NCBI GenBank assembly: GCA_032128875.1
Contig: JAVLKG010000004.1
Span: 128,001 to 192,000, forward strand
Length of the DNA: 64,000 nucleotides
DNA from: Candidatus Melainabacteria bacterium 17Bon1m
Lineage (GTDB): Bacteria > Cyanobacteriota > Vampirovibrionia > Obscuribacterales > Obscuribacteraceae
Direction: 5' to 3'
Part shown: piece after piece, positions 45,118-64,000 of the stretch
Layout of the letters: each line of letters begins with the position of its first letter
How positions within the stretch are numbered: the first letter of the stretch is position 1
Notes under the pieces: model-generated
Databases searched by the model: none
What the model saw: only the letters and a program-made list of their open reading frames with translations
What the model was told of the DNA's origin: nothing
Made by a program: the position numbers and the translations under genes

Positions 45118-45442
45118 GGTGTAGCAAATGTTTTGGTCGCGCCTTATTTTACGCCAGCAGTTTACGACATCAACGGCTGTGCACGTTCTCTTGATTGTCA
45201 TGGGGCGCAGGGGTGGCGCTTTTGCCGCTCCAATCAGTTAAAAACCCTGTAATAGACAGCGTCTTTTGAATTGTCAGTATGTGTCGTGGCTTACAAATCG
45301 GCTTTGTGAGCCGATTATCAAGCGGGTTCTACTTGAATATTTGACATGTAGCTGAGATGATGATTTAACGGCGAAAAGCACAGTATTTCTGTTGTATGCC
45401 GCTTACATAACCCATCAATAAGCAATCGCTTTATTCGAGAGG

Positions 45443-46337: not shown

Positions 46338-46383
46338 ACCCTTTGACCGATAGCGCACGGCGCATACCTTGGAGATTTTGCAT

Positions 46384-47319: not shown

Positions 47320-47422
47320 GTTTTCGCTCATCTTGAATTCGCAAAGAACAGGCACATTGGGCGTTCTCGAGTGCTTTACATGTTAAAATTGGGGGCTTCT
47401 GCGAGTAACAAAACTCCGCCCT

Positions 47423-48880: not shown

Positions 48881-48882
48881 AT

Positions 48883-50106
48883 ATGACTGTCGCAACTCCA
48901 CCAAAATCTACTGATGAAAAGGTTGCCGACATCAAGTCGGGCAAGGCGAAGAATGCTTTGCTTTCGAGCATGTTCATCTGGATAGTGGTGCTCTTTATTG
49001 CAACTGGTGAGGTTATTCGCCCTTTTTACAAACTCGTAGACACTGGGTTTGCAGAAAAGCTGAGAACCTTCTATCAGTCTGACAGGCATCCTGACGCTCT
49101 TCTGCTGGGTTCATCAGTGGCGTTTCCTTCTTCATTTGACTGTGATGCTTCAATCGGTGTTCTTACCGATAAAGATCTGAAGAGCAATTATCATGGCGCG
49201 GTGCAGCTTCAGAAATCAATTGAAGCAAGCACTGGCAAGAAATTCACTCTGGAGAACCTTGCTTGCTTCGGGGCGATGGCAAACCAAGCATGGCTGGAAG
49301 CAGAAAAGCTAGTCGAGTTTCAAAAATCTCCGAAGGTGATCATCTATGAGATGGTATCTCGTGACCTATTCGATGCCAGCATGCCTCGAAGCTTTGAATC
49401 TGAATACTATCGTGTCCTTTCTTTCCTGCATCCGAAGAGTTCCAGCAATAGTAATCCGTTTCAATCGATTGGCGATTCGATAGGGAATAGCCATGTCGTA
49501 ACTCTGATCAGGAATTTGATTTCTGATCCTGAAACGTTGAAGAATTCTGATCGGCTGCGCTTTGAGTTCGATTCTGCTCTTGGTGCAATGGTTTGTGTTT
49601 ATCAACATCGTTTTGAAATTTTAGGTCAACTCTCTAACTCAGTTTCAGATCTCTTTTCTCGTCAATCTGCTATGGAAGGAGCTCTCTCTAAAGTCGAAAT
49701 TGAGAACAAAAGAAAAAATCCATTTGCGAAAGTCTCCGCACAACGTGTAGAAACCTATGTTGTCGATTCATCACCTCAATTAGGACGTTTTGAAGATGAG
49801 AAGGTTTATTTCTTGAAGTTCGTGCAACTTTGCAAGCAGAACAAGATTCAGCTAATCGTCGTAAACATGCCTGTCACTGAGGAATACGACAAGCTTGTGC
49901 CGACTGAAATTAAGGCGCGTTGGCCCAAAGAAGCCAGGCAGTCCGTGGAAAGCGCGGGCTTTGCGTTCATCGACTTTGACGACAAGAAAGTCTTCCCAAA
50001 GAGTTGCTTCGTCGACATGGCACACCTGAACCTAACTGGTGCTTTAAAAGTGAACGAACTACTTTCCAAAGAAATTGCCAAACGCAATCTTTTAAAAGAC
50101 ATGTAA
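48883..50106 (+). CDS. Membrane-anchored SGNH-like acyltransferase (DltD/AlgJ/DUF1574-like)
   Basis: N-terminal TM, LLLGSS, C-terminal DMAHLN (DxxH). Confidence 0.78.
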   Translation: MTVATPPKSTDEKVADIKSGKAKNALLSSMFIWIVVLFIATGEVIRPFYKLVDTGFAEKLRTFYQSDRHPDALLLGSSVAFPSSFDCDASIGVLTDKDLKSNYHGAVQLQKSIEASTGKKFTLENLACFGAMANQAWLEAEKLVEFQKSPKVIIYEMVSRDLFDASMPRSFESEYYRVLSFLHPKSSSNSNPFQSIGDSIGNSHVVTLIRNLISDPETLKNSDRLRFEFDSALGAMVCVYQHRFEILGQLSNSVSDLFSRQSAMEGALSKVEIENKRKNPFAKVSAQRVETYVVDSSPQLGRFEDEKVYFLKFVQLCKQNKIQLIVVNMPVTEEYDKLVPTEIKARWPKEARQSVESAGFAFIDFDDKKVFPKSCFVDMAHLNLTGALKVNELLSKEIAKRNLLKDM

Positions 50107-50132
50107 GAGCGCTGTGTGTAAAGCGCCGGCTC

Positions 50133-51047
50133 TCAGTGTTTGTATGGCTTGAATTGTTTTTCGAACCATTTGGCCGTGCGAGTAAGTTGTGCTGGACCAA
50201 AGAAGAAGTGATCTCCTTCTTTTACGACCTCAAAATCGCATCGCACTCCAGCCTTGTCGAGAGCTTTCTTGAAATTCTCGCTTTGTCTGATTGAAACCGT
50301 TCGATCTTTGTCGCCGTGCATAATCAAGAAAGGAGGATCATCTATCGAAGCAAACTCCATAGGGCTGGCGAGTCTTATTTCATTTTGCTTGCTGTCTTGA
50401 GGTCCTTTGAAAAGCTTGTAGAAGACGGACTCTTGATTCCAACCCTTCTTAGGTATGTGTTCGAAATCAACAAAGCCGCACCAATCGCACACTGCCATAA
50501 CCTTGCTTGATTGCTCAGTGTTTCCTTCCACACCTTCCAGGTCTCTCTCTCCGCCGCTTGTTCCTAGAAGCGAGGCAAGGTGTCCACCTGAGGACATGCC
50601 CCAAACACCTATTTTGTCCGGATTTAGATTGTATTTGGTGGCGTTTGCGCGAAGATAGCGCACTGCTGCTTTGCAGTCATGAATCTGGGCTGGAAAAGGC
50701 GCTTCACTCGAGAGACGGTAATTGATAGCAGCGACAGCAATGCCCCTTTTAATTAGCTCTGGGCAAGGAGCTGGGCGTTTATCGCCGCCTTCCCAGGCGC
50801 CTCCGTGAATCCATACGACCACCGGCACTCTTTCTTGTGAAACATTGCCAGGCAGAAAGAGATCCAAAGTTTGGGACTTGAGTTTTGAACCAGGTATGTA
50901 CGGCAGGTCCGCGTGAAGCGTTGGCGCCGCGTTTACGCTTGCTGACTTGCTTTTAGCGCAACCACTGACAGTCGCCATCAATATCAATCCAAGTGCCGCT
51001 ATCAAAACGATAGATGGTCTTTGCTGGTAGTTTGTCACGAAACTCAT
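50133..51047 (-). CDS. Alpha/beta hydrolase (HSL/BD-FAE-like esterase), putative lipoprotein
   Basis: HGGAW, GMSSGG nucleophile, HGDKD, GDH; lipobox-like VSGC. Confidence 0.9.
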   Translation of the reverse strand: MSFVTNYQQRPSIVLIAALGLILMATVSGCAKSKSASVNAAPTLHADLPYIPGSKLKSQTLDLFLPGNVSQERVPVVVWIHGGAWEGGDKRPAPCPELIKRGIAVAAINYRLSSEAPFPAQIHDCKAAVRYLRANATKYNLNPDKIGVWGMSSGGHLASLLGTSGGERDLEGVEGNTEQSSKVMAVCDWCGFVDFEHIPKKGWNQESVFYKLFKGPQDSKQNEIRLASPMEFASIDDPPFLIMHGDKDRTVSIRQSENFKKALDKAGVRCDFEVVKEGDHFFFGPAQLTRTAKWFEKQFKPYKH

Positions 51048-51380
51048 GGATGTTAATGGCGCTCGCACGAAAGCTAAGGTTGAAACCAACCAAGATTATC
51101 CTACCTTCTCTCAATTCGTGTTTAATCGCAAAATAAGCACAGCTGGTAGGTTTTCATCCAAACATATTCGAAGGATACGCCTGAGTGATATGGGCTTTGC
51201 GTAGTTCCCGAAGGCAGAATTTTCACAATATCGTAATACTTGACAGCCCTGGCGAAACGCTCAAAAGCGGCTCTGGTGAAGGCGTTTGGCAATGTCTATT
51301 TGTTTGCATAAAGTCACCAAAAAGCGGAATCAAAATGGAAACACCAGCGTCTACTTACACATACTGAAAACGGAGTCGTT

Positions 51381-51686
51381 ATGGAACTGCGTATTGATGA
51401 ATCCAATTTGAGCCGCCACAGCCGAGGAGGCGATGGCGAAGCGTTGGAATCATGGGTGCACATCATGCACATCGCTAGAGCTTTTGAAGAAGCTGGCGAT
51501 ATAAAGATGGCGGAAGAATTTTTTCGAACAGCTGTATGGATTTCAGATGAGTTTCTCAGTGCCGAAACCTCTATGAAGGGGCTTTTAATGCTGAGTTCGA
51601 CCTTGTCGAAGGACGGGCGAAGTACAGAAGCAGCACTGGCATTTATGCGCGCATTACGAATGTTCGACGAGAATATCAACAACTAG
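51381..51686 (+). CDS. Hypothetical TPR-like helical protein
   Basis: GGAG SD, TPR-like helix pair, downstream terminator. Confidence 0.6.
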   Translation: MELRIDESNLSRHSRGGDGEALESWVHIMHIARAFEEAGDIKMAEEFFRTAVWISDEFLSAETSMKGLLMLSSTLSKDGRSTEAALAFMRALRMFDENINN

Positions 51687-51723
51687 AGATCGCGCGAGTT
51701 TAAAAAGTTTTGCAGAGGGGGTG

Positions 51724-51762
51724 GGGCTGTCCGGTTGAAAGACCGGGCAGCTCCCAGTTTTT
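51724..51762 (+). terminator. Terminator hairpin between convergent genes
   Basis: GCTGTCCGGTT-GAAA-GACCGGGCAGC stem-loop followed by a T run. Confidence 0.65.
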
Positions 51763-51783
51763 AAGCGACTAATTCTGCACACT

Positions 51784-53415
51784 CTAGGTTTGGAGTCGTT
51801 GCTGTAACTTGCCGTATTGAATTTTGGAGTTGTGGCGTGCATCGACGGGTATGGTGTCGACCCATCGAATTTCGTCGAATCGCAGCCATTTGAAAGCATC
51901 AGTCACATTTTTTTTCAGCGGTTTTGCATGATTCAAAAGTTCAATTAGTCGTTCTTTTAGAGATCCAGATTTTTTTTCTATTACTAAAATCCGTTTTGTA
52001 CCAAACTTCATGCAAGTCGCTCGACGCACCAACGGGATTTCTGAGGCTGCAACTTCGACCTGAAATGGGTAAAGCTCACCGTACTCATCGCTGATCTTCA
52101 TCGCGCATCTTCCCATGAGCCACAACCGGCCTTCTGAATCTAAGTAACCGGCGTCTCCTGTTCGATGCCAAATTTTAGAACTTTTTCGACGTTTGGTTGC
52201 GGTTGAGAATTTTGTCTCCGCATCACCTACGCCATTCAAATATGTTTCAACAACATGCTCTCCTCGAACAACAATCTCTCCTGTAACGTAAGCAGGCAGT
52301 CTCGTGAATTTCTTCAGTGTACCTGTCGCGAGCGCATTCAACTCACTCTGGTGCACAATTGCCAATTCAATTTCGTCGATGGGTTTGCCTGCAAGCAATC
52401 CGCTACCATCAAAAGTCTTCTGCAAATCTTCTGGCGTGACTTCCTTGTTGGAGATGTGCGCAATCGGCTCTGCCTCAGTGGAGCCATACACTGATATAAC
52501 TTCTGCATTCGGAAAAGCAGCTTCGATTTGCTTCAACAATGAAGGAAAGACTGGTCCGCCACCAGTCAGTATCTGTGTTAGACCATGGACATTTATGTGC
52601 ATTTCATTTAACTGATCAATCACGCGCTGCAGAAATGCTGGTGATGCAATTATGCGATTTACCCCACAAACTCGCATTTGACGAATAATTCTTTGCGCGT
52701 TGATTGTTGCTGGTTTGCGCATGTCGCCATCGGGAAGTACCGATGTGATTCCCTGTGCCAATGCCGAGAGGACAAACACTGGAAGCGTTGTAAGCTCTAC
52801 ATCCGACTTTTTACCAGGCAAAGTTTTTGCTAAAACCTTTTGTTGATTTAACAAGAAACCATGTGTGCGAACAATCGCCTTTGGATTGCTGGTAGATCCA
52901 CTTGTGAAGGTTATTAGCGCCGGATGATCATCGGCAACATCTTCGATTGGCGTTGGTAAGCCCAGTGAACCATCTGTGGTGCTATATGCCGCAGCCCGCC
53001 CAATTTGAGGAACAATCTGATCTGCAAGAACCTTGACGCGAATGTCACGGACTTCTCTAATTGCAGAGCTGAGTACGCGCAGTCTAGCTGTCGATACCAT
53101 CGCGTCCGGACGAACTAGCTGAAGTGAGTGTTTTAGCGCCTTATAGCCACCCGCGGGATCCACAATTACAACAGTCGCACCAATTCTGAACAATGCTAGC
53201 AAAAGCACGTATGTTTCGATGCGCATTGAAACAGCCAGCAGCACTCGGTCATTTTTTTCGATACCGGAATCGAGTAATTTCTCCGCCGCAAGTTCTGTCA
53301 GTTTTTGCAGAGTCCTATATGTCAAAGCGCGGTCGACGTTGTGCCGAAAGTCTCTCAGCGCGATTCGCTCGGGCTGGCAGACTGCATGTTCATCGAGTAT
53401 TCTGACAAGGTTCAT
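51784..53415 (-). CDS. AMP-binding (ANL) enzyme, OleC-like
   Basis: FTSGSTSNPK, YGSTEAEP, WHRTGDAG, RHNSKI. Confidence 0.9.
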   Translation of the reverse strand: MNLVRILDEHAVCQPERIALRDFRHNVDRALTYRTLQKLTELAAEKLLDSGIEKNDRVLLAVSMRIETYVLLLALFRIGATVVIVDPAGGYKALKHSLQLVRPDAMVSTARLRVLSSAIREVRDIRVKVLADQIVPQIGRAAAYSTTDGSLGLPTPIEDVADDHPALITFTSGSTSNPKAIVRTHGFLLNQQKVLAKTLPGKKSDVELTTLPVFVLSALAQGITSVLPDGDMRKPATINAQRIIRQMRVCGVNRIIASPAFLQRVIDQLNEMHINVHGLTQILTGGGPVFPSLLKQIEAAFPNAEVISVYGSTEAEPIAHISNKEVTPEDLQKTFDGSGLLAGKPIDEIELAIVHQSELNALATGTLKKFTRLPAYVTGEIVVRGEHVVETYLNGVGDAETKFSTATKRRKSSKIWHRTGDAGYLDSEGRLWLMGRCAMKISDEYGELYPFQVEVAASEIPLVRRATCMKFGTKRILVIEKKSGSLKERLIELLNHAKPLKKNVTDAFKWLRFDEIRWVDTIPVDARHNSKIQYGKLQQRLQT

Positions 53416-53460
53416 TGTTCGTTCAAAGTCGTTTCTAGAGTTGTATTTACTAACAGTTGG

Positions 53461-54534
53461 CTACAGAGCTTTGCCGTAAAGTGAGTAAGTTCGAATTGCT
53501 TCTCCGTACATCGAGCTGATTCCGCTGGCTGCATTGCCCATTGCATAGAGTGCGTGGATTGCCTCGCGGTAGCCTTTCTCGTAAGCTCTTGAATGCACCT
53601 CTTGATACATCAAGCGCCCAAGTCCTTTAAGTTTTTCGTCCTGATTGCGGGCGATTGTTTTCATCACCAGTCGTGGTTGAAAAGCCGCTGAATTTTGATC
53701 TGGATAAGCGAAGAGATAGCCGACTATCTTTCCTGCCTTTTCTGCAACCACCATAAGTTCTGGGTCGGCCAGCGATGTCAGCTTCGTTTGCTCTTTCATA
53801 AATGACGCTCTGTCGATTGGCGAAAATAGAAAGTTGTTTTGCATTGCTTCCATCGTGACTCGAAAGATGCCTTCTAGGTCTGAATCGATGTCGTTTGCAT
53901 TGAGTGTTCTGAGTTTGACACCTTGACGTGACAATCTTGCTTTGATTGTTTTGCTGTCAGGGTCTTTTGAATCAAGGTTATGGTTGATTGAAGAACCATA
54001 AGTTTTTACAACCTTGAATCCAGCATCTAGAAAATGTTTGTTCCAACTAAGTGGATTGACCGGCTCGAGTGAAAATATGCGTTCGCCACAGCTCTCACTA
54101 ATCAGCCGGTATCGGCGCCAGGTGCTGCCGTCGATAGGTCCAATGACTGCGTTGCAGCCCCTCTTCTTCAATTCGAATTCAGCCAGCTCAAGCAGTTCTA
54201 TACCGGCTTTGAGTGATGTGGCGGCATAATGACCTATGAATCCAAGTTTTACCTCAGAGCCTATGACGCGCAAGTCCAATTGGTCTGCTGAAGGTGGAAA
54301 GAGCAATTTGGGCTCAGTCCAGATTGAGCAGCGCGCCGTTAGTTTGCCTTCGTACATTGCGAACAAATAGAGTGAAGGCGAACCATTGGTCTGAGTCGGT
54401 TCAACACACTCATGCGGGAAAGATAGAGCAAACTTGGTCGATATCTCCGCCAACTCGGCTGACAAGCTTTCCGGCTTGACTGCAAAAGTGTAATTTAAGC
54501 AGCCAGAATGCGGCGCAGACAGAGCTTCTGTCAT
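53461..54534 (-). CDS. GNAT-fold acyltransferase (tandem GNAT, YghO-like)
   Basis: IGHY, GPIDGSTWRRYR, GLGRLM motif A. Confidence 0.75.
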   Translation of the reverse strand: MTEALSAPHSGCLNYTFAVKPESLSAELAEISTKFALSFPHECVEPTQTNGSPSLYLFAMYEGKLTARCSIWTEPKLLFPPSADQLDLRVIGSEVKLGFIGHYAATSLKAGIELLELAEFELKKRGCNAVIGPIDGSTWRRYRLISESCGERIFSLEPVNPLSWNKHFLDAGFKVVKTYGSSINHNLDSKDPDSKTIKARLSRQGVKLRTLNANDIDSDLEGIFRVTMEAMQNNFLFSPIDRASFMKEQTKLTSLADPELMVVAEKAGKIVGYLFAYPDQNSAAFQPRLVMKTIARNQDEKLKGLGRLMYQEVHSRAYEKGYREAIHALYAMGNAASGISSMYGEAIRTYSLYGKAL

Positions 54535-54649
54535 CGCGAATCTCCTTTATTTTTCAGACCCACCAACTTAATAGTAGGTTTTGGGTGGACTATTGTTCCC
54601 AGTATTCACACAGTTTCATGAGTGTTTACCTGGACTTAAACTGCCGTTT

Positions 54650-55990
54650 TTAATGGATGAAAGCCGCCGGTACTGAGCCGATAAGGGACCCCAGTATGGC
54701 AAACAGAGCCTGCTTGAACCACCGGGTTTTCCCGGTGAGAGACCTGGTCGGATCTTGCTGGGAAAGATAGAAAGAAAGAACCGGCAGGGCTATACATAGT
54801 GGTGCTGCAACGCTCAGGAGTATTGCCTGGCGCGTGAATCCGGCGAGGATGACAAAAGGGATGAAAAGAAGCAACCAGCTTTTGAGAACGCCGCTTGTCA
54901 ACACCAGGATTCTTGAAGAGTTGAATCCGCGAGAATGAACGTGAGCCACCATGATTATTGCGGCATGCACAGCGAAAGCAAGCGTATAAGGAAAGATGAA
55001 TTCCCTGCCGAAGGACAGTTGCGAACATATCCAGATGAGCCCGGTGCTCGCGACGCTAAGCACAGCATACATTGAGTGCCTGTTTTCAATCGACTGAAAA
55101 CGCATGGGCATACACCAGCGGTAGCAAGAGAAAACAATGAGTGGCATCGTCATCCATTGCAATCCGCCGACCACGAAGCTGCCGTATGCAAATAGTGCCA
55201 CGCCGAGGATAGCGCTTCCGGTGAGTGTTGTCTTGTGGCGCCATGCGATGGTGAAGGATAGGATTATCGCCAACACAATGAGCCTGATGGCTAATGTTTC
55301 GGTCGGCACATCGACGTGTGTGCGCAAGACCAAAAGTGCACCCAGAGGAATTGCTAGATTGTCAAAACCGCGCCAGGCAATTCCTTCGAAGAGCATAGCC
55401 AGAATGCCCATAATGAGCGAGATAAACAGTGTTTTGTCGGCGGGCGTCGTAGTGAAAAGGTCGAGAGGGACGAGAGTGCCCAGAAGCGCGAAAGTGAAAA
55501 ACGCCAGCGAACCCTCCGTGCTCTTCGCGCCATCAACTGTCGCGTATTTGTGCGTTCCATACTTAATTCCGACCATTGCGGAAACAGCGTCGGCGAGTGT
55601 AAGAATCAGTACTGGAATGCAAAAAAAGAGTGGTTGTTCGAATGTTAGTGTGAAAAGAATGCCGATTGCCAGCGGAAAGCAGATGTGCCCGTAAGACTGC
55701 CTACCATCTGCTTTGAGAACGCAGCCCCATGAGTTGAGCATCTTAAGTTTGCCGACAAAGGATAAAGTCACAGCCGTGGCGATTGATAAAACCGCCACTG
55801 GCCATGACTCTTCGAATAAATACGGAAAGCTGAGCGTGACACATCCCATAAGCACATGCACTGCCTTTCGAATCAATTCCGGTTCGCAACCAGTCTTCTT
55901 CTTGATATAGGACAGCACGCTCATTGCTGCCGTGAGAACTCCCATCACCAGGCTCATGCCGAGAATTGGATTAGGAAATGCTCCTAACAC
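54650..55990 (-). CDS. Polytopic phytol/dolichol kinase-like (CTP_transf_1 superfamily) membrane protein
   Basis: RKAVH, LADAVSAMVG..YG, KSTEGS, DNLAIP plus extra TM domain; start overlaps the upstream stop. Confidence 0.82.
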   Translation of the reverse strand: MLGAFPNPILGMSLVMGVLTAAMSVLSYIKKKTGCEPELIRKAVHVLMGCVTLSFPYLFEESWPVAVLSIATAVTLSFVGKLKMLNSWGCVLKADGRQSYGHICFPLAIGILFTLTFEQPLFFCIPVLILTLADAVSAMVGIKYGTHKYATVDGAKSTEGSLAFFTFALLGTLVPLDLFTTTPADKTLFISLIMGILAMLFEGIAWRGFDNLAIPLGALLVLRTHVDVPTETLAIRLIVLAIILSFTIAWRHKTTLTGSAILGVALFAYGSFVVGGLQWMTMPLIVFSCYRWCMPMRFQSIENRHSMYAVLSVASTGLIWICSQLSFGREFIFPYTLAFAVHAAIIMVAHVHSRGFNSSRILVLTSGVLKSWLLLFIPFVILAGFTRQAILLSVAAPLCIALPVLSFYLSQQDPTRSLTGKTRWFKQALFAILGSLIGSVPAAFIH

Positions 55991-57129
55991 GTTATTTCCT
56001 CGATCACCAGCCTGCTATAAAAGAAGGCTTTATCTTCCTTGTGCAGTTGTTCTGCCAATTCTGTATGTGATTTGAGAACAGGTGCCATTCTCTCAGGTCT
56101 ACTGCGTGGTGCAAGCATGTTCCAGTAAACAAGCTTGGCACCGGTGCGCCCCGCGAGTACGAGTTCGCTGAGCAACTTGTGGTAGTTGTCCATCGACATG
56201 TACTCGAAAATGTCGCTCAGGTTGAACTTGTCGACTGAGCCCGGAGAAAGTTCTTCCAACACTGATTCAATACTTCCGACGCGCAATTCTAGCTTGTCGA
56301 TGTTCGCCTTGATCTTTTCGTAGTTGTCTTTGCGCAAATAGTGCGGCAGAGCCGACACATAGTTGCCCTTGAGAATCCACTGCATGTAGGGGTTTTCAGC
56401 CGGGTCAAGAACTGTCAAAGCGTATTGCGTTCTATCCAGGATTGCCTGAGCAACGTCGGTTTGAACATATTGGAAAAACGCCGGATCGCGGCCGAGCAAG
56501 CCCATTACTTTGCGAGAAAAGAACATGCGAAACAGTGTGCGCCATTTCGGTGTGTTCCAAACTTCATCGAAGAAGCGTTTGCGATCTTCGCTGTTGCGTT
56601 TGATAAGCAGGTCATCGCAAGTTTCCTTGCTATGTACAAATGGCAAAGCCGCGTTGCGAAAAATCTCGAAGTACTTTTCGAACTTGCCAGCGTGCCCTAT
56701 GCCTCTTGAAAGATCGAGCTTTTGCACATCGAAGAAATTTCTTGTCTCTTGTGATAAGTGCGGACGCAGTTTTGCATACAGTGCAAGTCTATTGCCAGGC
56801 TTTACGCCAATGAGGCAAAGTAAGTCTTCATATGAGAGAAACTTGATTGCGCGGGCTTTGAGTTCTAGGCAAGCAATTTGCTGGCGGTTGAAATCTACAG
56901 CGATCACTTTTGATGGATCTTGAGACAAAAGCGACAAGCTATTGTCTCCAGCAGAAGCTACCGAAATGCAGACATCGCCTGCTTTCACATCCAGTGCTTT
57001 CAGCAAGATGTCGGCATCTTCCCAGCACTGTGCGTAGCGGATGCGTGAAAAATCAGCATGGTTTTCGATTTCGGAAAAACGAAGTTCCGGTCTGTTTTTC
57101 AAAGTAAGAGTGGAGTTAAGTTTTTTCAT
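55984..57129 (-). CDS. DUF3419 / BtaA-like SAM-dependent 3-amino-3-carboxypropyl transferase
   Basis: YAQCWED, SAGDN.L, VDFN..Q...LELK, LSDIFEYM. Confidence 0.85.
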   Translation of the reverse strand: MKKLNSTLTLKNRPELRFSEIENHADFSRIRYAQCWEDADILLKALDVKAGDVCISVASAGDNSLSLLSQDPSKVIAVDFNRQQIACLELKARAIKFLSYEDLLCLIGVKPGNRLALYAKLRPHLSQETRNFFDVQKLDLSRGIGHAGKFEKYFEIFRNAALPFVHSKETCDDLLIKRNSEDRKRFFDEVWNTPKWRTLFRMFFSRKVMGLLGRDPAFFQYVQTDVAQAILDRTQYALTVLDPAENPYMQWILKGNYVSALPHYLRKDNYEKIKANIDKLELRVGSIESVLEELSPGSVDKFNLSDIFEYMSMDNYHKLLSELVLAGRTGAKLVYWNMLAPRSRPERMAPVLKSHTELAEQLHKEDKAFFYSRLVIEEITC

Positions 57130-57140
57130 CGACGCCCCTC

Positions 57141-59786
57141 CTAGCTCGCCTCCCTGCGGAGACCTGTGGAATCAATGAGTTTCACGACGTTGTCGCTAAG
57201 ATCATGTTCCGAATTTTGGGAAGCACTTTCGGCTGTGCTTGCAGCTGGAATTTCTGATGACAGCAGTTGTGCGTTTTCAGTTTTGCTCGAATCTGAAAGC
57301 TTTGTGATCGTCCCTGTTTTGCCGTCAAATTCGATGAGGTCGCCGTCCGTCAGCCAGTTCATCACTCCTGCCGCTGACACTACTGCAGGAATGCCGAGCT
57401 CACGAGAAACAATTGCGGTGTGGGAAAGTAAGCTGCCATATTCGACGATGATGCCTTTCGCTTGGGTGAAAAGAACAATCCAACCTGGGTCTGTTCTTTC
57501 GGCTATGAGGATCTCGTCTTCCAGCGGTTTTGCATTTAAAGGATCGCGAACCACGCGTACACGACCGCGTACAGTGCCTGGTGAGCAGCCGAGACCTGTC
57601 ATAGTTTCAGACTTACTATCAGATAGGTCAGGTGATTTAATTTGGTCGAAGCATGGCGTCGCCCCTACGGTAGCTTCTATAACGGCGCTTCTGGTGACGA
57701 TGCGGTTTGGCGGCGGAAGCTCGTTCTGAAATTGGAGAAATTCCTTCCTGCGAAGTTCAGCAAGCGCAGCTATGTTCGCCGTCGTTCCTTTACCTTCTAT
57801 AAAGCTGAGAACTTCTTCTACTTCTAAGTAGAAAATGTCGTTTTTGTCATTTAGTATGCCTTGTTGTTCGAGCTGTTTGCCAAACTGGAGAAAGATTCTT
57901 CTGACTAAACCAAACAAACGTGTTCGCTCGAATCTCAAATTCTCTCGCCAACGAATACGCTCGACAGCCTGGTTGGCAACGAAGTTGAAAACCACCCGTT
58001 TGAAAAAAGGCAGTTTGGCAATTTGAGATTTTGAATAGGTTGGCGACGGTTCCTGTAAGTTTGCGGTTCGTACTTTTCTTGGAGCTGATGCCAGAGCAGC
58101 AATGTTTCTCAAAAGCGGTAAAGGATTATCGTTAAGAGTTTGACTTTCTAGTTTTAACTCGTTAAGACAACGGTCGCCGAACCTATCAAGATAGTTTTTG
58201 AAAGCTATTTCAAATCTCTCGTTGTCCTTCATGAGGTTCTCAATTTCCTGCATGTTTCCATTTGAGAGAGCAAGTTGAAGTTCTAGATCGTCACGAGCGA
58301 TGTCTGCCATCTTTGTGATCAGTTTTGCAGGCTCTGCGCTGATAATTCCACCGGCGTTGACAAGCAACTCGTGCTGCGAGAAAGATTGTGGCATCCAATT
58401 TTGGCTGAGCGAATTCAGCATTCCGAAGAAGATCATGGCAAAGAAGTCGTTGACTAGTGGCGCATCCCACGATGAGAGAAGTTTCGCTTCTAAGCTGCGA
58501 TAGAGCTTCGCAAGCTGATCTGTGTTCAGCTTGGATAAGTCTTTTGGTACTTCAGATAATGTGGTGTTGAAGTGGTTTTGAAAATTAGAAATCTCTTTTT
58601 GCAGCTTTGCAAATCGAACTGTCATCGCACACAGTGAGGTTGCGAAGTTTAGATACGCTCTGCCTGTAGAAACCTTGTTATCTTCGATGACTTGCTCAAT
58701 TACTTCTGCGGGCAGCTCTTCTTTGACACCCATCATCTGTTCCATGAAAGGTCTATTTACTTGAAACCCAGGAAGCAGTGCGAGCAATTTGTACCAGTTG
58801 ACCAGGTTGTAATAGATACGACCGCGGATGTAGCCGAGCATGCGCGGGAAAATCTGACTATTTGCCTCAATGCGCTCATTCGATACGCCCATCAAACGAC
58901 AGAAGTGGATATAAACATGTTCGTATGCTTTCGCTGCGAAGCTGAATGTGAGCGGCGTAGTTACTCCTTGATAGCTTTCTGAGATGTTGCTGTTGTCCCA
59001 GATTCTCAGGTTTCCCTCAAGCTTCTCGGGAAGAGTTGTGATTGGGCGAGCTTGCAAAATGAAAAGTTGATTGCCGTCATGTGCCCATTCGATGTCCTGT
59101 GGGCAACCAAAAAGCAATTCGATCTTTCTTGCGATGTGCGCAATCTCTAATGCTATGGCATCACTAATCTCAGACTCGTTGGCAAAACCTGCTTTTCTTT
59201 TGATTGTTTGACCATTGATGACGTACAACAGTTCGCCGCTAACTTCGCCCGAGACGAGTCTATCTGCTAGACCGCCAACTGCGTTGATCACAACGGTATT
59301 TCTGTCTCCACTGATTGGATCAGCGCTAAATGCCACGCCTGCAACTTTTGCGTCAACCATCTTTTGAACGATTATCGCGGGGCCGTCGGATTTCCTTTCG
59401 ATGCCCATGCCATTGCAGTATGCTTGCAAACGATCCGTTGTTCCGGACAGCCAAACTGATCGTGCTGCGGTGATGACCCACTCGCTGCTGACATTCAAGA
59501 AAGTATCTAGCTGTCCTGCGAATGATGTTTTTGCACCGTCCTCGTCAATTGCCGATGAGCGAACTGCCAGCAATGTAGTTCCAACCTTGAACTTTCTGTG
59601 AGCTATTTTGAGCTCTTCTTCCAAAAGTGGATCTTGCCAGGTTGTGTCGCTGCGAAAGGCACCGGGAACAATCGTCACAAATGCTGGTACTGCAAATCCA
59701 GCTGCTTTGAGGCGTGCGAGGTTTGCAGCTTTATTGCCGGTGAGCTCCGGTTTGTGACGTTCGTATTCGAGAATGATGTTTTTCAT
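57141..59786 (-). CDS. PEP-utilising dikinase with rifampicin-phosphotransferase-like architecture
   Basis: ATP-grasp (VRSSA..ED....SFAG, QDIEWA, LQARPIT), central substrate domain (NISESY.GVTTPL), C-terminal phospho-His swivel (LSHTAIVSRELGIP). Confidence 0.9.
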   Translation of the reverse strand: MKNIILEYERHKPELTGNKAANLARLKAAGFAVPAFVTIVPGAFRSDTTWQDPLLEEELKIAHRKFKVGTTLLAVRSSAIDEDGAKTSFAGQLDTFLNVSSEWVITAARSVWLSGTTDRLQAYCNGMGIERKSDGPAIIVQKMVDAKVAGVAFSADPISGDRNTVVINAVGGLADRLVSGEVSGELLYVINGQTIKRKAGFANESEISDAIALEIAHIARKIELLFGCPQDIEWAHDGNQLFILQARPITTLPEKLEGNLRIWDNSNISESYQGVTTPLTFSFAAKAYEHVYIHFCRLMGVSNERIEANSQIFPRMLGYIRGRIYYNLVNWYKLLALLPGFQVNRPFMEQMMGVKEELPAEVIEQVIEDNKVSTGRAYLNFATSLCAMTVRFAKLQKEISNFQNHFNTTLSEVPKDLSKLNTDQLAKLYRSLEAKLLSSWDAPLVNDFFAMIFFGMLNSLSQNWMPQSFSQHELLVNAGGIISAEPAKLITKMADIARDDLELQLALSNGNMQEIENLMKDNERFEIAFKNYLDRFGDRCLNELKLESQTLNDNPLPLLRNIAALASAPRKVRTANLQEPSPTYSKSQIAKLPFFKRVVFNFVANQAVERIRWRENLRFERTRLFGLVRRIFLQFGKQLEQQGILNDKNDIFYLEVEEVLSFIEGKGTTANIAALAELRRKEFLQFQNELPPPNRIVTRSAVIEATVGATPCFDQIKSPDLSDSKSETMTGLGCSPGTVRGRVRVVRDPLNAKPLEDEILIAERTDPGWIVLFTQAKGIIVEYGSLLSHTAIVSRELGIPAVVSAAGVMNWLTDGDLIEFDGKTGTITKLSDSSKTENAQLLSSEIPAASTAESASQNSEHDLSDNVVKLIDSTGLRREAS

Positions 59787-59804
59787 TTTGCTGCCTTAGT
59801 GTAT

Positions 59805-60722
59805 TTAAAAGGTTTTTCCAAACATGGAAAACATTGATGGCACAGTCCCCAGTGCGACGTATGTGACTAACGTCCAGACTCCGGAGAAACTCTCGAACGG
59901 CTTACCGCTCGAAGAATGTTTTACAAACTTGATAGCAATTGCAACGGCGCCAGTTGCAAGAAATAAGACGAGCGCGATGATCGGCACTGCAAACCCGAGT
60001 TTTGCAGCAGTAGCTATCGCCAAACAGCCAGATGCCGCGATTGCCGCAAGCCATGCAAAGACAGCCGGTCTGCTTCCCCAGGCTGAAGTGTAGCTTGTCA
60101 CTCCGTCTTTTTCTTCATCAGAAGATTTGATCTTGCGCCCGATTTCGATGATCACTCCATTGCAAAAACTTACAGCGAGAAACAGCCACAATCCCGATGG
60201 TGGCAATGCGGTGCCTTTCATCCAATCGAAAGCGGTAACGAAAATGTCTACGAAAAGCAAAATCAGCATGTGCGTCCATAAGTAGGTGAATGGACGTTGC
60301 TTCAGCCAGTCGCCAACGAAAAACTCCACGCTCATTAGCGCGAAGTACAGCCATGTGAGGGCTAGAGGGAGAAGCAGGCTTTGCTGGTAGGAAAACGCGA
60401 GGGACAATTGAATTGCGCCACCGAGTGCGCCAAGCATCGCCAGCTCTTTCAGTTTGACCAAGCCGCGGGGAACCGGCCGCTCCGGCTGGTACCGGCAGTC
60501 TTCTTCGTGGTCTTTAAACTCATCGGCAACACGAAGCTGGAAGAAAAGGATTAGGGAGCAGAGATACGCTGCCAGAAAGGCTTGAATGTCCGGCATTCCT
60601 GCTTCGCCGCGCATCATTCGAGAAACACAGAGCGCCGAATAGGAGAATGCTGCCACTATGGCGCCGTATTGGGAGAGCGGGAAGCGCTCTCTTTGATAGA
60701 CGAACCAACGGTTTAGTTTCAT
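59805..60722 (-). CDS. Divergent UbiA-family prenyltransferase
   Basis: About 8 TMs, RVADEFKDHEED...PERPVPRG Asp-rich motif, EIGRK. Confidence 0.8.
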   Translation of the reverse strand: MKLNRWFVYQRERFPLSQYGAIVAAFSYSALCVSRMMRGEAGMPDIQAFLAAYLCSLILFFQLRVADEFKDHEEDCRYQPERPVPRGLVKLKELAMLGALGGAIQLSLAFSYQQSLLLPLALTWLYFALMSVEFFVGDWLKQRPFTYLWTHMLILLFVDIFVTAFDWMKGTALPPSGLWLFLAVSFCNGVIIEIGRKIKSSDEEKDGVTSYTSAWGSRPAVFAWLAAIAASGCLAIATAAKLGFAVPIIALVLFLATGAVAIAIKFVKHSSSGKPFESFSGVWTLVTYVALGTVPSMFSMFGKTF

Positions 60723-60876
60723 TTTTCTGCGCCCTAGAGCTGAGTGTGCGGAAGCTAGCGGTCGATCCGCTAGGACTCCACCGCTGTGCCTACAGACTCA
60801 TTCTAGGTCGGCATGTTTCCGAAAGTCGGCTGTATGCGATCAGTTTGCCGACTGTTTTGCTCCTCTGTCTGACACA

Positions 60877-62106
60877 TCAGAAGGGATACACATATCCTTT
60901 TTCGTATCCGTGATAGGACAAATTCGGATCTCGAGTCAGAAAGTTGATTGCCTGGCTTTGCTTTGGGTTCGATTCATTTTTTATGGACAGCGTTCGAATA
61001 TATTCGCCTGTGGCTGTTCTCAACTTACCTGATGGGGTAGAGATTGCTGCGCTGTAGCCTTCCTTCTTAAGAGCCGAATTCAAAGTTTCTGTAAATGTCT
61101 TCGAAAGACCGACGTATTCATCTTGCAATGCACTCTTTATAAAAGTGTCTACCAATTCGCCACTCTCTTTCTTATTCAATGCAACTGATTTTGCAATCAA
61201 AGAACTTACACACCCTTCCATCTCTTTGCGAAGGTCGGCTTTTGATATGGTCGAAACATCTCCAGTCTGCATAGCCAATTTGCCAAAATTGAATTGCAGA
61301 AAGTATTTTGTGTACTTGTGTTCTTGTGTGCTGCTTTGATATTTCGTCATATCGCTCAGTGATATCTCACCCTTCTTCAAAAGAAGTGGATCATTCATGA
61401 GGTGTTGCAATGCTCTTAGCTCAGACATGCTTTTCTGTAGGGAAGGATCACATGATTTATATGGGTTGAGTCCTTCGATAATAGTGCTGCCACCCTCAAC
61501 GGATTTACCTGCGAACAATGAATGCTGCGCATGACTGGTTTTAACAGAGATAAATCTGTCTACTACTACTGAATTCCCCTCTCCTAATGTGAAAACCGTC
61601 GCTGGGATTTGTTCCATCAGGTAATTGAAGGCTGACGCTTTATCGATTCTGACTTGCTTACCGCTGCCTGCAAGAGCTGTATTGAATTGGTTTTGCAAAT
61701 CACTTCTTGAACTCGAAGCGTCAATCAATCGCGTGATTCCGCTGCGTATTTCAAAATTGAGCGGCGCGTTGCTGGGGGCAGATTCTATTGCCGCCGTCAG
61801 ATTAACCAAAATTGCGCGATCTATGTCAGGTTTTGAAATCGAACCAGCGCCTCCCGAAACTTGCCCGAAGTTTTTAAGCAAGTACAATTCTGGACTTCCA
61901 GGGCGCTGAGAGTTTGTGTCTTGCATTCCACTTCTTAGTTCGTCTCGAGTGAGTCGCGAATCACCACTCTTATCAATCCTTTTGAAATCGCTCTTCGCCT
62001 CAAACAATGCATCCAATACCATGTTAGAGCGTGCCTGCGACTCTTCGTCATCTACTTCCGGCGACGTCTTATCAGCACGTGCTTCTTCGATTGCATCTTT
62101 TGCCAT
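60877..62106 (-). CDS. Hypothetical protein with EF-hand-like loop
   Basis: FKRIDKSGDSRLTRDEL; remainder unrecognised. Confidence 0.7.
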   Translation of the reverse strand: MAKDAIEEARADKTSPEVDDEESQARSNMVLDALFEAKSDFKRIDKSGDSRLTRDELRSGMQDTNSQRPGSPELYLLKNFGQVSGGAGSISKPDIDRAILVNLTAAIESAPSNAPLNFEIRSGITRLIDASSSRSDLQNQFNTALAGSGKQVRIDKASAFNYLMEQIPATVFTLGEGNSVVVDRFISVKTSHAQHSLFAGKSVEGGSTIIEGLNPYKSCDPSLQKSMSELRALQHLMNDPLLLKKGEISLSDMTKYQSSTQEHKYTKYFLQFNFGKLAMQTGDVSTISKADLRKEMEGCVSSLIAKSVALNKKESGELVDTFIKSALQDEYVGLSKTFTETLNSALKKEGYSAAISTPSGKLRTATGEYIRTLSIKNESNPKQSQAINFLTRDPNLSYHGYEKGYVYPF

Positions 62107-62307
62107 TTCAAAACCTCAAATAAATTCGGCGTTAGCAGACCCTACTTTCTATCGGTTTGCAAAGCTGCAGCAGCTCGGGCTTTGGGGTGCGCCTTGCTCT
62201 GTTGTGGCTCATACTAGCCGTCCAATGTTGCCGCAAAGTTGCCAAATCGTTGTTGATTTGTTGCCGGTTGCTTTTGCGACGCGTCCGATTATCCGCTGGC
62301 TTCGATG

Positions 62308-63555
62308 CTACCGCCTAATGAACCGGATCACTCTCTGGTCATTGTCGACGGTGTACTCGTATCCTTCATATAGGTCTTGTCCGACTAGCGGACGCCCTAG
62401 AGAGCCGTAGTTTGCGGTCACATCGCAGTTGTATTTCTCGATTGGCCCGAGCTTCACTCGATTGACTTTGAATCGCAATCCGCTGCCGCTGCCCGTTACT
62501 CCAGAGTGGGTGACAGCTTCACCATCTTCGGTCGAGAGGTTGAGCGCTTTGACGTCATTCATTCCCATGCTGATGGCCGAAGCGGAGTTGCCTGTGTCGA
62601 AGTACATTGGGTAGGACCGCCCATTTACTTCAACATTGACGACCATCTTTGGACCTTCCCATGAGAAAGGTACGGCATAGCCTCCGCGTGCCGCGCCCGA
62701 TCCGCCGGAGCCTTTCTTCTTAAGCCTGATGGCGCCGGCATTTCTGTCAATTGAATATTCGAAGTCTTGGATGAAAGATTGCCCGAGAAGCGGCGGCGCT
62801 GCATTGTATGCGAGCACTTTGATGGGGAAGTTTTGCCGCAGTATGGTCCCGACTTTGACGTCTGCCGGCATCATCCAGTAGGACTGAAGGCTGGCATTGG
62901 ACGAGCCACCGGACTGACCAGTTGGTTCTCCTTCCGGTAGTCTGATGCCCATCTCTTGTAGCTGATTTTTACCGACAACAATTCCTGTTGCGCCAGTGTC
63001 GAAGGTCATTTTGAGTGGGCGATTATTGATGTATACATCAACTTTCAACTGCGCATCCCCCTTTTCGAAGAATATTGTTGCTTGTTCGGGAAGGTTTGAG
63101 CTGGAAGAGCTCCTTACGGCAGAGGCGCTGCTGCCGCCAGAGTATGTTCTCACCGAACTCTGGGCGTTTGTGCCGGAACTTGCCGTGGCTGGTTTTGGAT
63201 ACCACTGCGCGTCGGTGGTTCCGGGATTGAGGCGCATGCCGCCGACTACCTGTGCGGAGCGCGTTGCCGCAGCGGTGCCGGGAAACTTCTTAAGGATAAG
63301 CTGGTAATTGACGAGGGCGTCGGCTGTCTTCCCTTGATAGTGTTGGCTCACCGCCAAGTAGTACAAAGCGTTCGCGTTCGTGGGCTCGTTGGTGACGGCT
63401 TTCTTGAGCAATTTGGAAGCTTCATCAAAACGTTTTTCACCAAGAAGCTTCACGCCTTGCTTGAAGTCTTCGCCAGCCATGGCGGGCGACCAGGAAAGTC
63501 CCAGAAAGGAGACCAACACAAGGATAACCAAGAGTTTCGTCTGTTGCTGTTGCAT
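62308..63555 (-). CDS. TPR plus tandem retropepsin-like aspartyl protease, exported
   Basis: Signal peptide, TPRs, two DTG motifs (FDTGA, FDTGN), each followed by LLG/LVG. Confidence 0.88.
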   Translation of the reverse strand: MQQQQTKLLVILVLVSFLGLSWSPAMAGEDFKQGVKLLGEKRFDEASKLLKKAVTNEPTNANALYYLAVSQHYQGKTADALVNYQLILKKFPGTAAATRSAQVVGGMRLNPGTTDAQWYPKPATASSGTNAQSSVRTYSGGSSASAVRSSSSSNLPEQATIFFEKGDAQLKVDVYINNRPLKMTFDTGATGIVVGKNQLQEMGIRLPEGEPTGQSGGSSNASLQSYWMMPADVKVGTILRQNFPIKVLAYNAAPPLLGQSFIQDFEYSIDRNAGAIRLKKKGSGGSGAARGGYAVPFSWEGPKMVVNVEVNGRSYPMYFDTGNSASAISMGMNDVKALNLSTEDGEAVTHSGVTGSGSGLRFKVNRVKLGPIEKYNCDVTANYGSLGRPLVGQDLYEGYEYTVDNDQRVIRFIRR

Positions 63556-63685
63556 CTGGAAGCACTCCCAAACTGACAAGCTGAAAGAGGGTTTTCCTCA
63601 TCCTCTCTCAGTGTTTTTTACCCGTTTGGGTAAGTAGTCCAATTCGGAAATCAACTGGTTCGAACTGCCAGCCTTTATCAGATTT

Positions 63686-64000
63686 CTAGACCGTCCACTC
63701 TTCTTTGCGCTCGGGCGGATTCAAACGTTTTATCGACAATAAAAATCCGATTGATGACATGTCGACCAACAGCGCTGTTCCTCCATAGCTAAGGAAAGGC
63801 AATGGCACACCCGCTACCGGCATAATCCCAATGACCATGCCGATGTTGAGGAAAACGTGGAAAAGGAACATGCACATAAGCCCAAGTGCCATTAGGCTGC
63901 CCGCGGGTTCTCCTCGGGCTTGATGGGCGATCATAAGAGCACGGATGCAGATGCAGGCGTAAGCAATGACCACAAGAGCGGTGAACTTAAATCCCCACTC
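63686..64000 (-). CDS. rodA: Rod shape-determining protein RodA (SEDS), 3' part; runs off the window
   Basis: EWGF...NIGMVIGIMPVAGVPLPFLSYGG. Confidence 0.85.
   Translation of the reverse strand, partial: EWGFKFTALVVIAYACICIRALMIAHQARGEPAGSLMALGLMCMFLFHVFLNIGMVIGIMPVAGVPLPFLSYGGTALLVDMSSIGFLLSIKRLNPPERKEEWTV

Follow-up and report, generated by a model that had tools for sequence, protein, structure and literature searches.

Phytol salvage in plants and cyanobacteria runs through VTE5, a CTP-dependent phytol kinase, and VTE6, a phytyl-phosphate kinase of the DUF92 family, and then through a UbiA-family enzyme, either VTE2/HPT or ChlG. Members of the UbiA superfamily are defined by two Asp-rich Mg-diphosphate motifs, NDxxDxxxD and DxxxD, and use allylic prenyl diphosphates or phosphoribosyl pyrophosphate (PRPP) as donors. 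Dikinases of the rifampicin phosphotransferase (RPH) type phosphorylate hydroxyl or enol oxygens, with conversion of ATP to AMP + Pi through a phospho-His, and their products are phosphomonoesters. Genes for putative relatives of these enzymes lie side by side in a six-gene cassette which we describe here from a 64,000-nucleotide stretch (the window) of Candidatus Melainabacteria bacterium 17Bon1m (contig JAVLKG010000004.1, positions 128,001 to 192,000). The source genome (Obscuribacteraceae, Melainabacteria), 93% complete, comprises 35 contigs with a total of 7.55 Mb. The cassette recurs in a single gene order in many bacterial phyla and, we tentatively propose, directs the synthesis of a membrane aminolipid.

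The cassette occupies positions 51784-60722 of the window, on the minus strand. Its first gene (59805-60722; PF01040) encodes a divergent UbiA-superfamily membrane transferase of 305 amino acids (aa), followed by an RPH-type dikinase with a swivel His (57141-59786; 881 aa; PPDK_N and PEP-utilizers), a DUF3419/BtaA-like enzyme dependent on S-adenosylmethionine (SAM), presumed to be a 3-amino-3-carboxypropyl transferase (55984-57129; 381 aa; PF11899), a polytopic membrane protein with a GTG start and an N-terminal half assigned to the VTE5/VTE6 superfamily (54650-55990; 446 aa), a tandem-GNAT acyltransferase (53461-54534; 357 aa; Acetyltransf_1 over residues 252-328) and an acyl-adenylate/CoA ligase of the ANL superfamily, PRK09274 type (51784-53415; 543 aa; PF00501). 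Two of the six proteins are thus polytopic membrane proteins. The intergenic distances, from the UbiA-like gene to the ligase gene, are 18, 11, -7, 115 and 45 nt, and the G+C content is even over the region. A first-pass annotation had described six co-oriented minus-strand genes with these gaps as an orphan biosynthetic operon, and its arrangement matches the list of open reading frames (ORFs) exactly.

Twenty-one homologues of the 446-aa membrane protein were aligned, and one genome per species was scanned with the alignment. This gave 158 confirmed relatives; 80 loci were kept and searched by tblastn with the six window proteins, their phylum-level labels being read from record titles. All six genes are present in 43 of the 80 loci, and many of the loci lacking the full set end at contig borders. 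Gene order and strand are those of the window in 36 of the 43 complete loci, which carry nine phylum-level labels: Melainabacteria (8), Acidobacteriota (6), Verrucomicrobiota (6), Gammaproteobacteria (4), Desulfobacterota (4, including Desulfosarcina variabilis, L041), Planctomycetota (3), Cyanobacteria (1), Vulcanimicrobiota (1) and Nitrospirota (1), together with two unlabelled metagenome loci. The other seven (six Planctomycetota and one Gemmatimonadota) have the GNAT-ligase pair upstream instead. The tightest association is that of the DUF3419 gene, which stands directly upstream of the membrane-protein gene in 60 of the 80 loci and overlaps it by 7 nt in the window. The grouping of the six genes is not a matter of chance: they constitute one conserved unit, as the first-pass annotation had supposed when it proposed co-occurrence as a test, and the word "orphan" is inappropriate for a cassette so widespread. 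Within the Obscuribacteraceae it is an accessory element; judged by its membrane protein, it is present in 10 of 12 genomes of the same genus and in 13 of 24 of the same family.

Clustering of all ORFs of the 80 loci revealed a protein of approximately 435 residues with an HMG-CoA_red domain (376 bits) encoded directly upstream of the UbiA-like gene in 35 loci. This gene, which resembles HMG-CoA reductase (HMGR), heads the cassette in 35 of the 45 loci that have a UbiA match and at least 1500 nt of upstream sequence; among loci with room upstream it is found in none of eight from Melainabacteria and in three of five from Acidobacteriota. The name FcrA denotes a fatty acyl-CoA reductase derived from class I HMGR, for which fatty alcohol formation has been shown experimentally (PMC11948995). 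In its signature, Ser684, which lies seven positions ahead of the catalytic Lys691, is replaced by Glu, and Leu862, four ahead of His866, by a bulky residue (PMC11948995). If the Lys of the conserved DKK and the conserved C-terminal His are assumed to be the catalytic residues, all 35 cassette proteins carry Glu seven residues before the former and all 35 carry Phe four residues before the latter. The presence of the signature in every one of them therefore indicates that a reductase making fatty alcohols stands first in the cassette of most phyla.

No such gene was found in the source genome, where neither the HMGR-like protein of D. variabilis nor PF00368 gave a match; five of 14 control genomes did match. 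PF00368 was likewise not found in the 24 genomes of the same family, among them 13 with the cassette membrane protein, nor, within the same class, in G031, a genome of 1.8 Mb and 99% completeness which has the six-gene form. The cassette of the Obscuribacteraceae is a reductase-free, trimmed form of the wider cassette. As FcrA is lacking in the source genome, the alcohol has to be supplied in some other way, perhaps by a different reductase, through uptake or as an isoprenoid alcohol. Two families were tried as probes for an alternative reductase and discarded: PF03015 was uninformative, matching nowhere, controls included, and PF07993 matched 16 generic genes of the short-chain dehydrogenase/reductase type. 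In some loci from Acidobacteriota, Gammaproteobacteria and Burkholderiales, a cytochrome P450 gene lies beside the GNAT gene (L029, 11598-13673; L024, 17253-18527; also L035, L069 and L074). L029 has no HMGR-like gene within 5.3 kb upstream of UbiA (L035 ends at UbiA), and the P450 in L029 hints that hydroxylation could be another origin of the alcohol.

The cassette is built of three separable modules, namely (FcrA)-UbiA-dikinase, the BtaA-like enzyme with the membrane protein, and the tandem GNAT with the ligase. Within the class of the source genome, one family (genome G028) has the HMGR, UbiA and dikinase genes on a contig separate from that of the DUF3419 and membrane-protein genes, and three cyanobacterial loci (L018, L025, L061) possess the first five genes with no GNAT-ligase pair nearby. 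GNAT and ligase travel together, the ligase accompanying the GNAT and not FcrA. Two metagenome-assembled genomes (MAGs) of a sister genus within the Obscuribacteraceae have the dikinase and the DUF3419 enzyme fused in one ORF (L014, 6105-10001; L015, 5985-10001), the products being 1298 and 1338 aa long with PPDK_N, PEP-utilizers and DUF3419 all present. Eight loci carry the membrane kinase-like gene without an upstream DUF3419 gene, either alone or with GNAT and in some cases ligase; six are from oxygenic cyanobacteria, one is from Chloroflexota and one is unlabelled (L016, L026, L034, L040, L046, L052, L055 and the unlabelled L021). Because such loci exist, the membrane kinase-like protein appears to work outside the full cassette as well.

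A quick, unrooted IQ-TREE phylogeny of DUF3419 was calculated from 66 rows, with the DUF3419 portion of each fused protein included and ORFs outside 340-470 aa omitted. Melainabacteria fall on one side of a branch with a long stem (SH-aLRT 96), and the oxygenic Cyanobacteria group in a clade of their own (95), which is nested among Acidobacteriota, Desulfobacterota and Gammaproteobacteria; in this unrooted tree the two groups are not sisters. Phylum labels are strongly clustered, requiring 19 changes versus 45.9 in shuffles.

The UbiA-like protein matches PF01040 over residues 34-279 (49.7 bits; cut-off 34.2). Its best NCBIfam model, PRK13592, scores 77.3 bits versus a cut-off of 443, and PRK05951, BchG, EboC and GGGP transferase score lower. 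Its only solved relative by sequence is digeranylgeranylglyceryl phosphate (DGGGP) synthase (6m31; E 0.023). The first acidic motif is a variant, ADEFKD.eeD, which is conserved in 48 aligned homologues. A canonical UbiA prenyltransferase gene (44215-45201, minus strand; 188 bits) also lies in the window, approximately 6.5 kb from the cassette, and neither its score nor its context relates it to the divergent cassette protein.

The dikinase contains PPDK_N (162 bits) and PEP-utilizers (76.7 bits); Pfam detects no PEP-utilizers_C, that is, no PEP/pyruvate TIM barrel. Its layout of ATP-grasp, central substrate domain and mobile His domain is the RPH architecture, and 44 homologues conserve the swivel-His motif GSLLSH.AIV.RE.GiP. 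Among solved structures the best relatives are 5fbs and 5hv1 from Listeria (E 1.8e-52 over residues 457-828 for 5fbs), which we take to be rifampicin phosphotransferase though they were deposited as "phosphoenolpyruvate synthase". The protein falls below the Rph equivalog cut-offs (252.6 versus 999 for NF041857; 188.8 versus 1700 for NF000283) and below that of PigC (280.8 versus 1300); RedH was also matched, again below its cut-off.

The DUF3419 enzyme matches PF11899 with 240 bits, and its SAM-binding motif, S.ASAGDN, is conserved in 63 homologues; a PDB sequence search returned no solved relative at E<=1. From its family it is presumed to be a 3-amino-3-carboxypropyl transferase, as is BtaA. 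The methyltransferase BtaB, the usual partner in synthesis of the betaine lipid diacylglyceryltrimethylhomoserine (DGTS), is not found among the six genes or the flanking ORFs, and the families recurring in the 80 loci include no methyltransferase; the rest of the source genome was not searched systematically for BtaB homologues. Contig C13 of the source genome does carry a second DUF3419 gene (400 aa; 135.8 bits), whose product is 26% identical to the cassette copy. It ends a plus-strand run (101026-103941; L098, 5027-7939) in the order DUF2071, Methyltransf_11 (283 aa), a 142-aa ORF, DoxX and DUF3419. Together with the Methyltransf_11 gene two genes upstream, this second copy is possibly the better candidate for a BtaA/BtaB (DGTS) pair, apart from the cassette.

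The membrane protein has no Pfam or NCBIfam match, and a PDB search with its profile was also empty. Many of its homologues have been named "phytol kinase" by the Joint Genome Institute (JGI), whose pipeline is based on KEGG Orthology. Alignment of the N-terminal half with 14 cyanobacterial DUF92/VTE6 proteins using hhalign gave a probability of 81.7% with an E-value of 1.1e-5 over 45 columns, which sit on the conserved catalytic motif LADA..A.VG..YG...KSTEGS. The AlphaFold model (pLDDT 87.6) was compared using VIA-align, in which residues 48-228 matched CdsA (4q2e; Z 8.0, 162 residues) and CarS (5guf; Z 6.1, 19% identity), Z values of a size that the tool rates as middling or unspecific for helical bundles; Foldseek found nothing in the PDB at E<=0.001. 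The homologue in G031 reaches 20.2 bits with CTP_transf_1, under the cut-off of 24. From motif and model it is reasonable to place the N-terminal half (residues ~1-228) in the superfamily of CTP-dependent lipid kinases and cytidylyltransferases that includes VTE5, VTE6, DolK, CdsA and CarS, and the JGI names and the motif favour a kinase over a cytidylyltransferase. The label "phytol-kinase-like" in the first-pass annotation is thus a reasonable one, supported by the names, the DUF92 motif and the CdsA/CarS fold, although no Pfam or NCBIfam model backs it.

The C-terminal half (residues ~229-446, about 220 aa) showed no recognised fold with Foldseek, VIA-align, Atlas or hhalign, the Atlas look-up returning hypothetical proteins only, at 0.90. 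The idea of a VTE5-VTE6 fusion was rejected: against the 14 cyanobacterial DUF92 proteins the hhalign probability of this half was 0.07%. Weak Pfam matches to DUF92 were seen in 5 of the 21 homologues and lay at the start of the C-terminal half in 3 of 10 that were re-scanned. A search of the source genome for DUF92 genes gave no matches.

The fifth protein of the cassette, listed in the first-pass annotation as a GNAT, is a tandem GNAT. Acetyltransf_1 matches only residues 252-328 (28.7 bits; cut-off 20.7), while the model (pLDDT 88.1) has as its best Foldseek match the tandem GNAT MAB_4324 (7q3a; E 2.5e-15), followed by glucosamine N-acetyltransferase, MshD (1ozp/2c27) and VipF. The CoA-loop motif is confined to the C-terminal domain, where all 28 of 28 sequences keep both G304 and G306. 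Weak sequence matches include ArsN1b (E 1e-5; 25.4 bits versus a cut-off of 210), PA4866 and phosphinothricin N-acetyltransferases, so that the best matches of the active domain, weak as they are, are N-acetyltransferases of phosphinothricin, methionine sulfoximine and arsinothricin. The substrates of these enzymes are 2-amino-4-substituted butanoates, the skeleton that a BtaA-type transfer creates. The ligase matches AMP-binding (PF00501; 171.7 bits) and PRK09274 (373.9 bits versus a cut-off of 478), and its motifs TFTSGST..PK, YGSTEAEP, WHRTGD and C-terminal RHN.K are conserved in 54 homologues; no relative was found in the PDB at the strict threshold of 1e-20. Its scores against the OleC models (236.8 versus a cut-off of 900; 206.8 versus 850) reduce the earlier designation "OleC-like" to a family resemblance. 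The unit contains no thiolase, hydrolase or reductase partner (OleA/B/D), and no OleABD-like gene occurs among the Pfam-scanned neighbours or the families of the 80 loci, the search for OleABD not having extended to the rest of the genome. The remark in the first-pass annotation that the usual partners, BtaB included, are missing from the unit holds to this extent.

From the gene content, conservation, modules, fusion, families, catalytic motifs and conserved non-coding blocks observed, we infer every substrate, the sequence of the steps and the end product as follows. The cassette would make a membrane aminolipid through alcohol phosphorylation, UbiA-type transfer, aminocarboxypropyl transfer and N-acylation, a proposal to which we give somewhat less than an even chance. 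A long-chain alcohol, supplied in most phyla by the FcrA-type reductase encoded first in the operon, would be activated by phosphate through the membrane protein of the VTE5/VTE6 superfamily, using a nucleotide triphosphate, and the RPH-type dikinase. With the activated chain the UbiA-like enzyme would alkylate or prenylate a membrane-bound acceptor, and the BtaA-like enzyme would then move the 3-amino-3-carboxypropyl (homoserine) group of SAM to an oxygen of that lipid. Finally, the ligase would activate a fatty acid and the tandem GNAT would place the acyl group on the new alpha-amino group, giving an N-acylated aminolipid of homoserine type, amphiphilic and with its chain linked by an ether bond. 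As the GNAT is paired with a ligase of the long-chain type, this acyl group may be a long one.

The lipid nature of the product is supported by the two polytopic membrane proteins of the cassette, and the activation of an alcohol by the DUF92/VTE6 motif, the CdsA/CarS fold and the RPH architecture with its conserved His. That the alcohol is a fatty one in other lineages is argued for by the FcrA signature of the heading reductase, and N-acylation of a homoserine-type amine by the invariant CoA loop of the GNAT and the substrates of its weak nearest relatives. Acylation by the ligase/GNAT pair of the amine that the BtaA-like enzyme adds had already been suggested in the first-pass annotation; it fits both those relatives and the pairing of the two genes. 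A literature search, which covered few subscription journals, found no description of the cassette or of its product, in line with the earlier statement that no product has been characterised for this combination.

Several points weigh against this pathway. We know of no precedent for transfer of a saturated alkyl diphosphate by a UbiA enzyme, and in the cassette protein the second motif region (iEiGRKi..E..GV..Y) is atypical, only E..GV..Y being at least 90% conserved. To our knowledge RPH-type dikinases do not convert a monophosphate to a diphosphate, and BtaA is the only characterised member of DUF3419 known to us, hence aminocarboxypropyl transfer is assumed. The model of the membrane protein has CdsA and CarS as its structural matches, and the protein might act as a cytidylyltransferase instead of a kinase. 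The fatty-alcohol step is not simply transferable to a source genome that has no FcrA. Nor does the ligase inform on the alcohol, because it stays with the GNAT and not with FcrA: Melainabacteria without FcrA keep the ligase, and the three cyanobacterial loci mentioned above keep FcrA with no GNAT-ligase pair nearby. Four RNA-labelled sequencing runs hold the whole stretch in contigs of 11-52 kb at a flat depth of 14-22, spanning genes of both strands; these libraries are here probably genomic DNA and carry no information on expression or operon structure.

The alternative that survives best, though we consider it unlikely, is a lineage-specific variant in which a free polyprenol (farnesol, geranylgeraniol or similar) is converted to its diphosphate and transferred by ordinary allylic UbiA chemistry, the remaining steps being those given above. 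The failure to find PF00368 in the source genome or its family agrees with it, and so does the fact that allylic donors are normal for UbiA enzymes, with VTE5/VTE6/UbiA salvage as the closest functional analogue known to us; the long, separate Melainabacteria branch of the DUF3419 tree would fit a change of substrate. On the other hand, the remaining five or six proteins have unmistakable orthologues in the FcrA-bearing cassettes (39-56% identity outside Melainabacteria), so that the same chemistry is the simplest assumption, and no isoprenoid gene lies in or beside the operon; the canonical UbiA gene is 6.5 kb away, past unrelated genes on the opposite strand. A free isoprenoid alcohol as substrate of the two kinases, proposed in the first-pass annotation, is unproven: the FcrA-type gene that heads 35 of 45 cassettes elsewhere points to a fatty alcohol in those loci, and the source genome has no such gene.

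The fusion of dikinase and BtaA-like domain in two Obscuribacteraceae MAGs, and the close linkage of the BtaA-like gene to that of the kinase-like membrane protein, are what one would expect if the amino acid were attached to phosphate. An alcohol or lipid hydroxyl would be phosphorylated once, a phosphomonoester being what RPH-type enzymes make; the BtaA-like enzyme would alkylate the phosphate oxygen and the GNAT would N-acylate, with UbiA acting elsewhere on the molecule. The product, a phosphodiester-linked homoserine, would be the one-carbon-longer analogue of a phosphoserine lipid. We rate both this route and its product as quite unlikely. No DUF3419 enzyme is known to alkylate phosphate, one phosphorylating enzyme and the UbiA-like enzyme are left without a clear role, and adjacent genes fuse easily, so that a fusion speaks for coupling and not for the order of steps.

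The structural comparison brings up a further scheme, in the archaeal style, in which the dikinase makes a lipid monophosphate, a membrane protein of CdsA/CarS type turns it into a CDP-lipid, and UbiA builds an ether core in the manner of DGGGP synthase. CdsA and CarS are indeed the best structural matches of the membrane protein, its homologue in G031 touches CTP_transf_1, and DGGGP synthase is the one solved relative of the UbiA-like protein. The structural scores, however, all fall in the range called unspecific for helical bundles, it is with DUF92/VTE6, a kinase family, that the conserved motif aligns, the homologues are named phytol kinase, and the cassette holds no CDP-alcohol phosphatidyltransferase to use a CDP-lipid; this scheme we judge very unlikely. 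Lastly, that the six are chance neighbours with textbook jobs (quinone prenylation, antibiotic phosphorylation, DGTS synthesis and olefin synthesis) is hardly credible: each family does have such a role, and a rifampicin-type phosphotransferase could stand alone, but the six recur jointly across many phyla, the named equivalogs all score below cut-off (Rph 252.6 versus 999, OleC 236.8 versus 900, prenyltransferases 77 versus 443 or lower), and a separate DUF3419-methyltransferase pair exists elsewhere in the genome.

The aminolipid pathway may also be stated in its fullest form, as a complete bacterial route to ether-type aminolipids with a diphosphate-activated alkyl donor produced by the CTP-type membrane kinase and the swivel-His dikinase, an ether bond made by UbiA in the archaeal manner to a non-isoprenoid or salvaged isoprenoid chain, and an N-acylated homoserine head group drawn from SAM, which is reductase-free in the Obscuribacteraceae and governed by a strongly conserved, lineage-specific leader that is possibly a new ligand-sensing RNA. 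In all its parts together this version is doubtful, and it would surprise us if every one of them held.

Two non-coding blocks accompany the cassette, and they were aligned from the window and seven same-genus loci. For the 154 nt preceding the UbiA start the folding z-score is -2.93, in agreement with the structured leader that the first-pass annotation had noted. Within them a block of 112 nt (60743-60854, minus strand) is conserved in all seven same-genus loci and was found, among all loci, only in these (L003-L009). Leader and spacer are far better conserved than synonymous sites: the leader is 68-93% identical to the window, versus 41-63% at third codon positions of the adjacent UbiA gene, and the 115-nt spacer between the membrane-protein and GNAT genes (54535-54649, minus strand) has a mean column identity of 82% with long invariant blocks over the eight sequences. 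The leader contains an invariant TAGAAT and a 10-bp hairpin kept in eight of eight sequences; the retention of the hairpin suggests an RNA structure, with a single compensatory pair. A GGTGG core is common to the spacer and the leader hairpin.

An nhmmer search of the 7.55-Mb genome with the leader returned the self-match only (contig C4, 188743-188854), and a regulon search with the leader and three sub-blocks found no second copy in the genome and none in loci outside the genus. Rfam gave no match at E<=1 over 49000-64000, leader and spacer included, so that no known riboswitch (e.g., for SAM) explains the leader. The leader may be a promoter with 5′ untranslated region (UTR) or a cis-regulatory RNA, and the spacer may be an internal promoter or a UTR/regulatory element for the GNAT-ligase pair.

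At its downstream end the unit had been described as bounded by a terminator. A G+C-rich 14-bp hairpin is present (51723-51754, strand unassigned) between the ligase stop codon and a convergent plus-strand ORF with tetratricopeptide repeats (TPR; 51381-51686), but the terminator scan flags it on the plus strand only; the T-run lies on that side, and the hairpin therefore probably serves as a two-way terminator for both convergent units. Predicted sites are near shuffle expectation, with 19 terminator-like sites versus 12.9±3.8 and 7 promoter-like sites versus 10.5±3.2. The contigs assembled from three of the four RNA-labelled runs break at this hairpin (51728-51744).

Upstream of the operon lies a 409-aa ORF (60877-62106, minus strand) with a sub-threshold EF-hand match only. 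It was rejected as a member of the unit, being fast-evolving and unlike its operon neighbours: in L003 its product is 57% identical, versus 83-96% for the operon proteins. Beyond it, a 423-aa gene for a TPR and retropepsin-like aspartyl protease protein (62308-63579, minus strand) is kept beside the cassette in L003-L008. On the other side of the cassette, an acyltransferase-like gene (weak Acyl_transf_1), an MBOAT gene (485 aa) and a DltD/DUF1574-like gene (407 aa) stand in a row on the plus strand (46369-50106), which looks like a polymer O-acylation module; a further DUF1574-like gene lies on contig C13 of the source genome (96982-98307).

The maintenance of one gene order over phyla that include Cyanobacteria and their non-photosynthetic relatives, Planctomycetota, Acidobacteriota, Verrucomicrobiota, Desulfobacterota and Gammaproteobacteria makes it very likely that the product is needed under some condition. 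If it is an aminolipid derived from an alcohol and assembled by a UbiA-type enzyme, it would represent a new lipid class and a new bacterial route to the ether bond, bearing on the "lipid divide" between Bacteria and Archaea and on the sources of ether-lipid biomarkers, and would imply new chemistry for RPH-type dikinases, for DUF3419 and for VTE5/VTE6-like kinases. The reductase-free form is a natural experiment, in that it sets the six-gene core apart from the source of the alcohol, and the conserved leader and spacer offer a handle on the regulation of the cassette.

Among known systems, phytol salvage by VTE5, VTE6 and UbiA is, by analogy, the closest working model for what the cassette may do. 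In both, a lipid alcohol would pass through monophosphate and diphosphate to a UbiA-superfamily enzyme, and the N-terminal half of the membrane protein bears the DUF92 motif. Unlike phytol salvage, the cassette would assign the second phosphorylation to an RPH-type dikinase, its membrane protein has an extra C-terminal half of some 220 residues, its host here is non-photosynthetic, and BtaA-like enzyme, GNAT and ligase are added. With the BtaA/BtaB pathway to DGTS the cassette shares a DUF3419 enzyme with the SAM motif and a presumed aminocarboxypropyl transfer onto a membrane lipid, whereas no BtaB occurs in any of the 80 loci and the amine is probably acylated rather than methylated. The dikinase resembles RPH (Listeria 5fbs/5hv1) and PigC/RedH in its three-part architecture, swivel His and NCBIfam matches, but scores far under their cut-offs, and its gene lies next to that of UbiA and in two MAGs forms one ORF with DUF3419.

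FcrA corresponds, by both signature residues, to the heading gene of most other phyla's cassettes, and is absent from the window; it has been linked to wax esters and possibly to ether lipids of the AGPS/PlsC type, and the available text of that report mentions UbiA 0 times (PMC11948995). Archaeal ether-lipid assembly likewise combines a UbiA-family enzyme (DGGGP synthase) with a membrane enzyme of CdsA/CarS fold in one lipid operon, but the cassette lacks GGGPS, glycerol-1-phosphate dehydrogenase and a CDP-alcohol transferase, and the similarity is marginal (E 0.023; Z 6.1). The acyltransferase shares the tandem fold of MshD and MAB_4324, and its active domain is weakly nearest to PAT, PA4866 and ArsN1, differing from these in scores far below the cut-offs and in its pairing with a ligase of the long-chain type. 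The superfamilies themselves are known; what the present locus and its relatives add to them is the reductase-free form of the cassette, the fusion of dikinase and DUF3419 enzyme in a sister genus and, in the non-coding DNA, the conserved leader and spacer.

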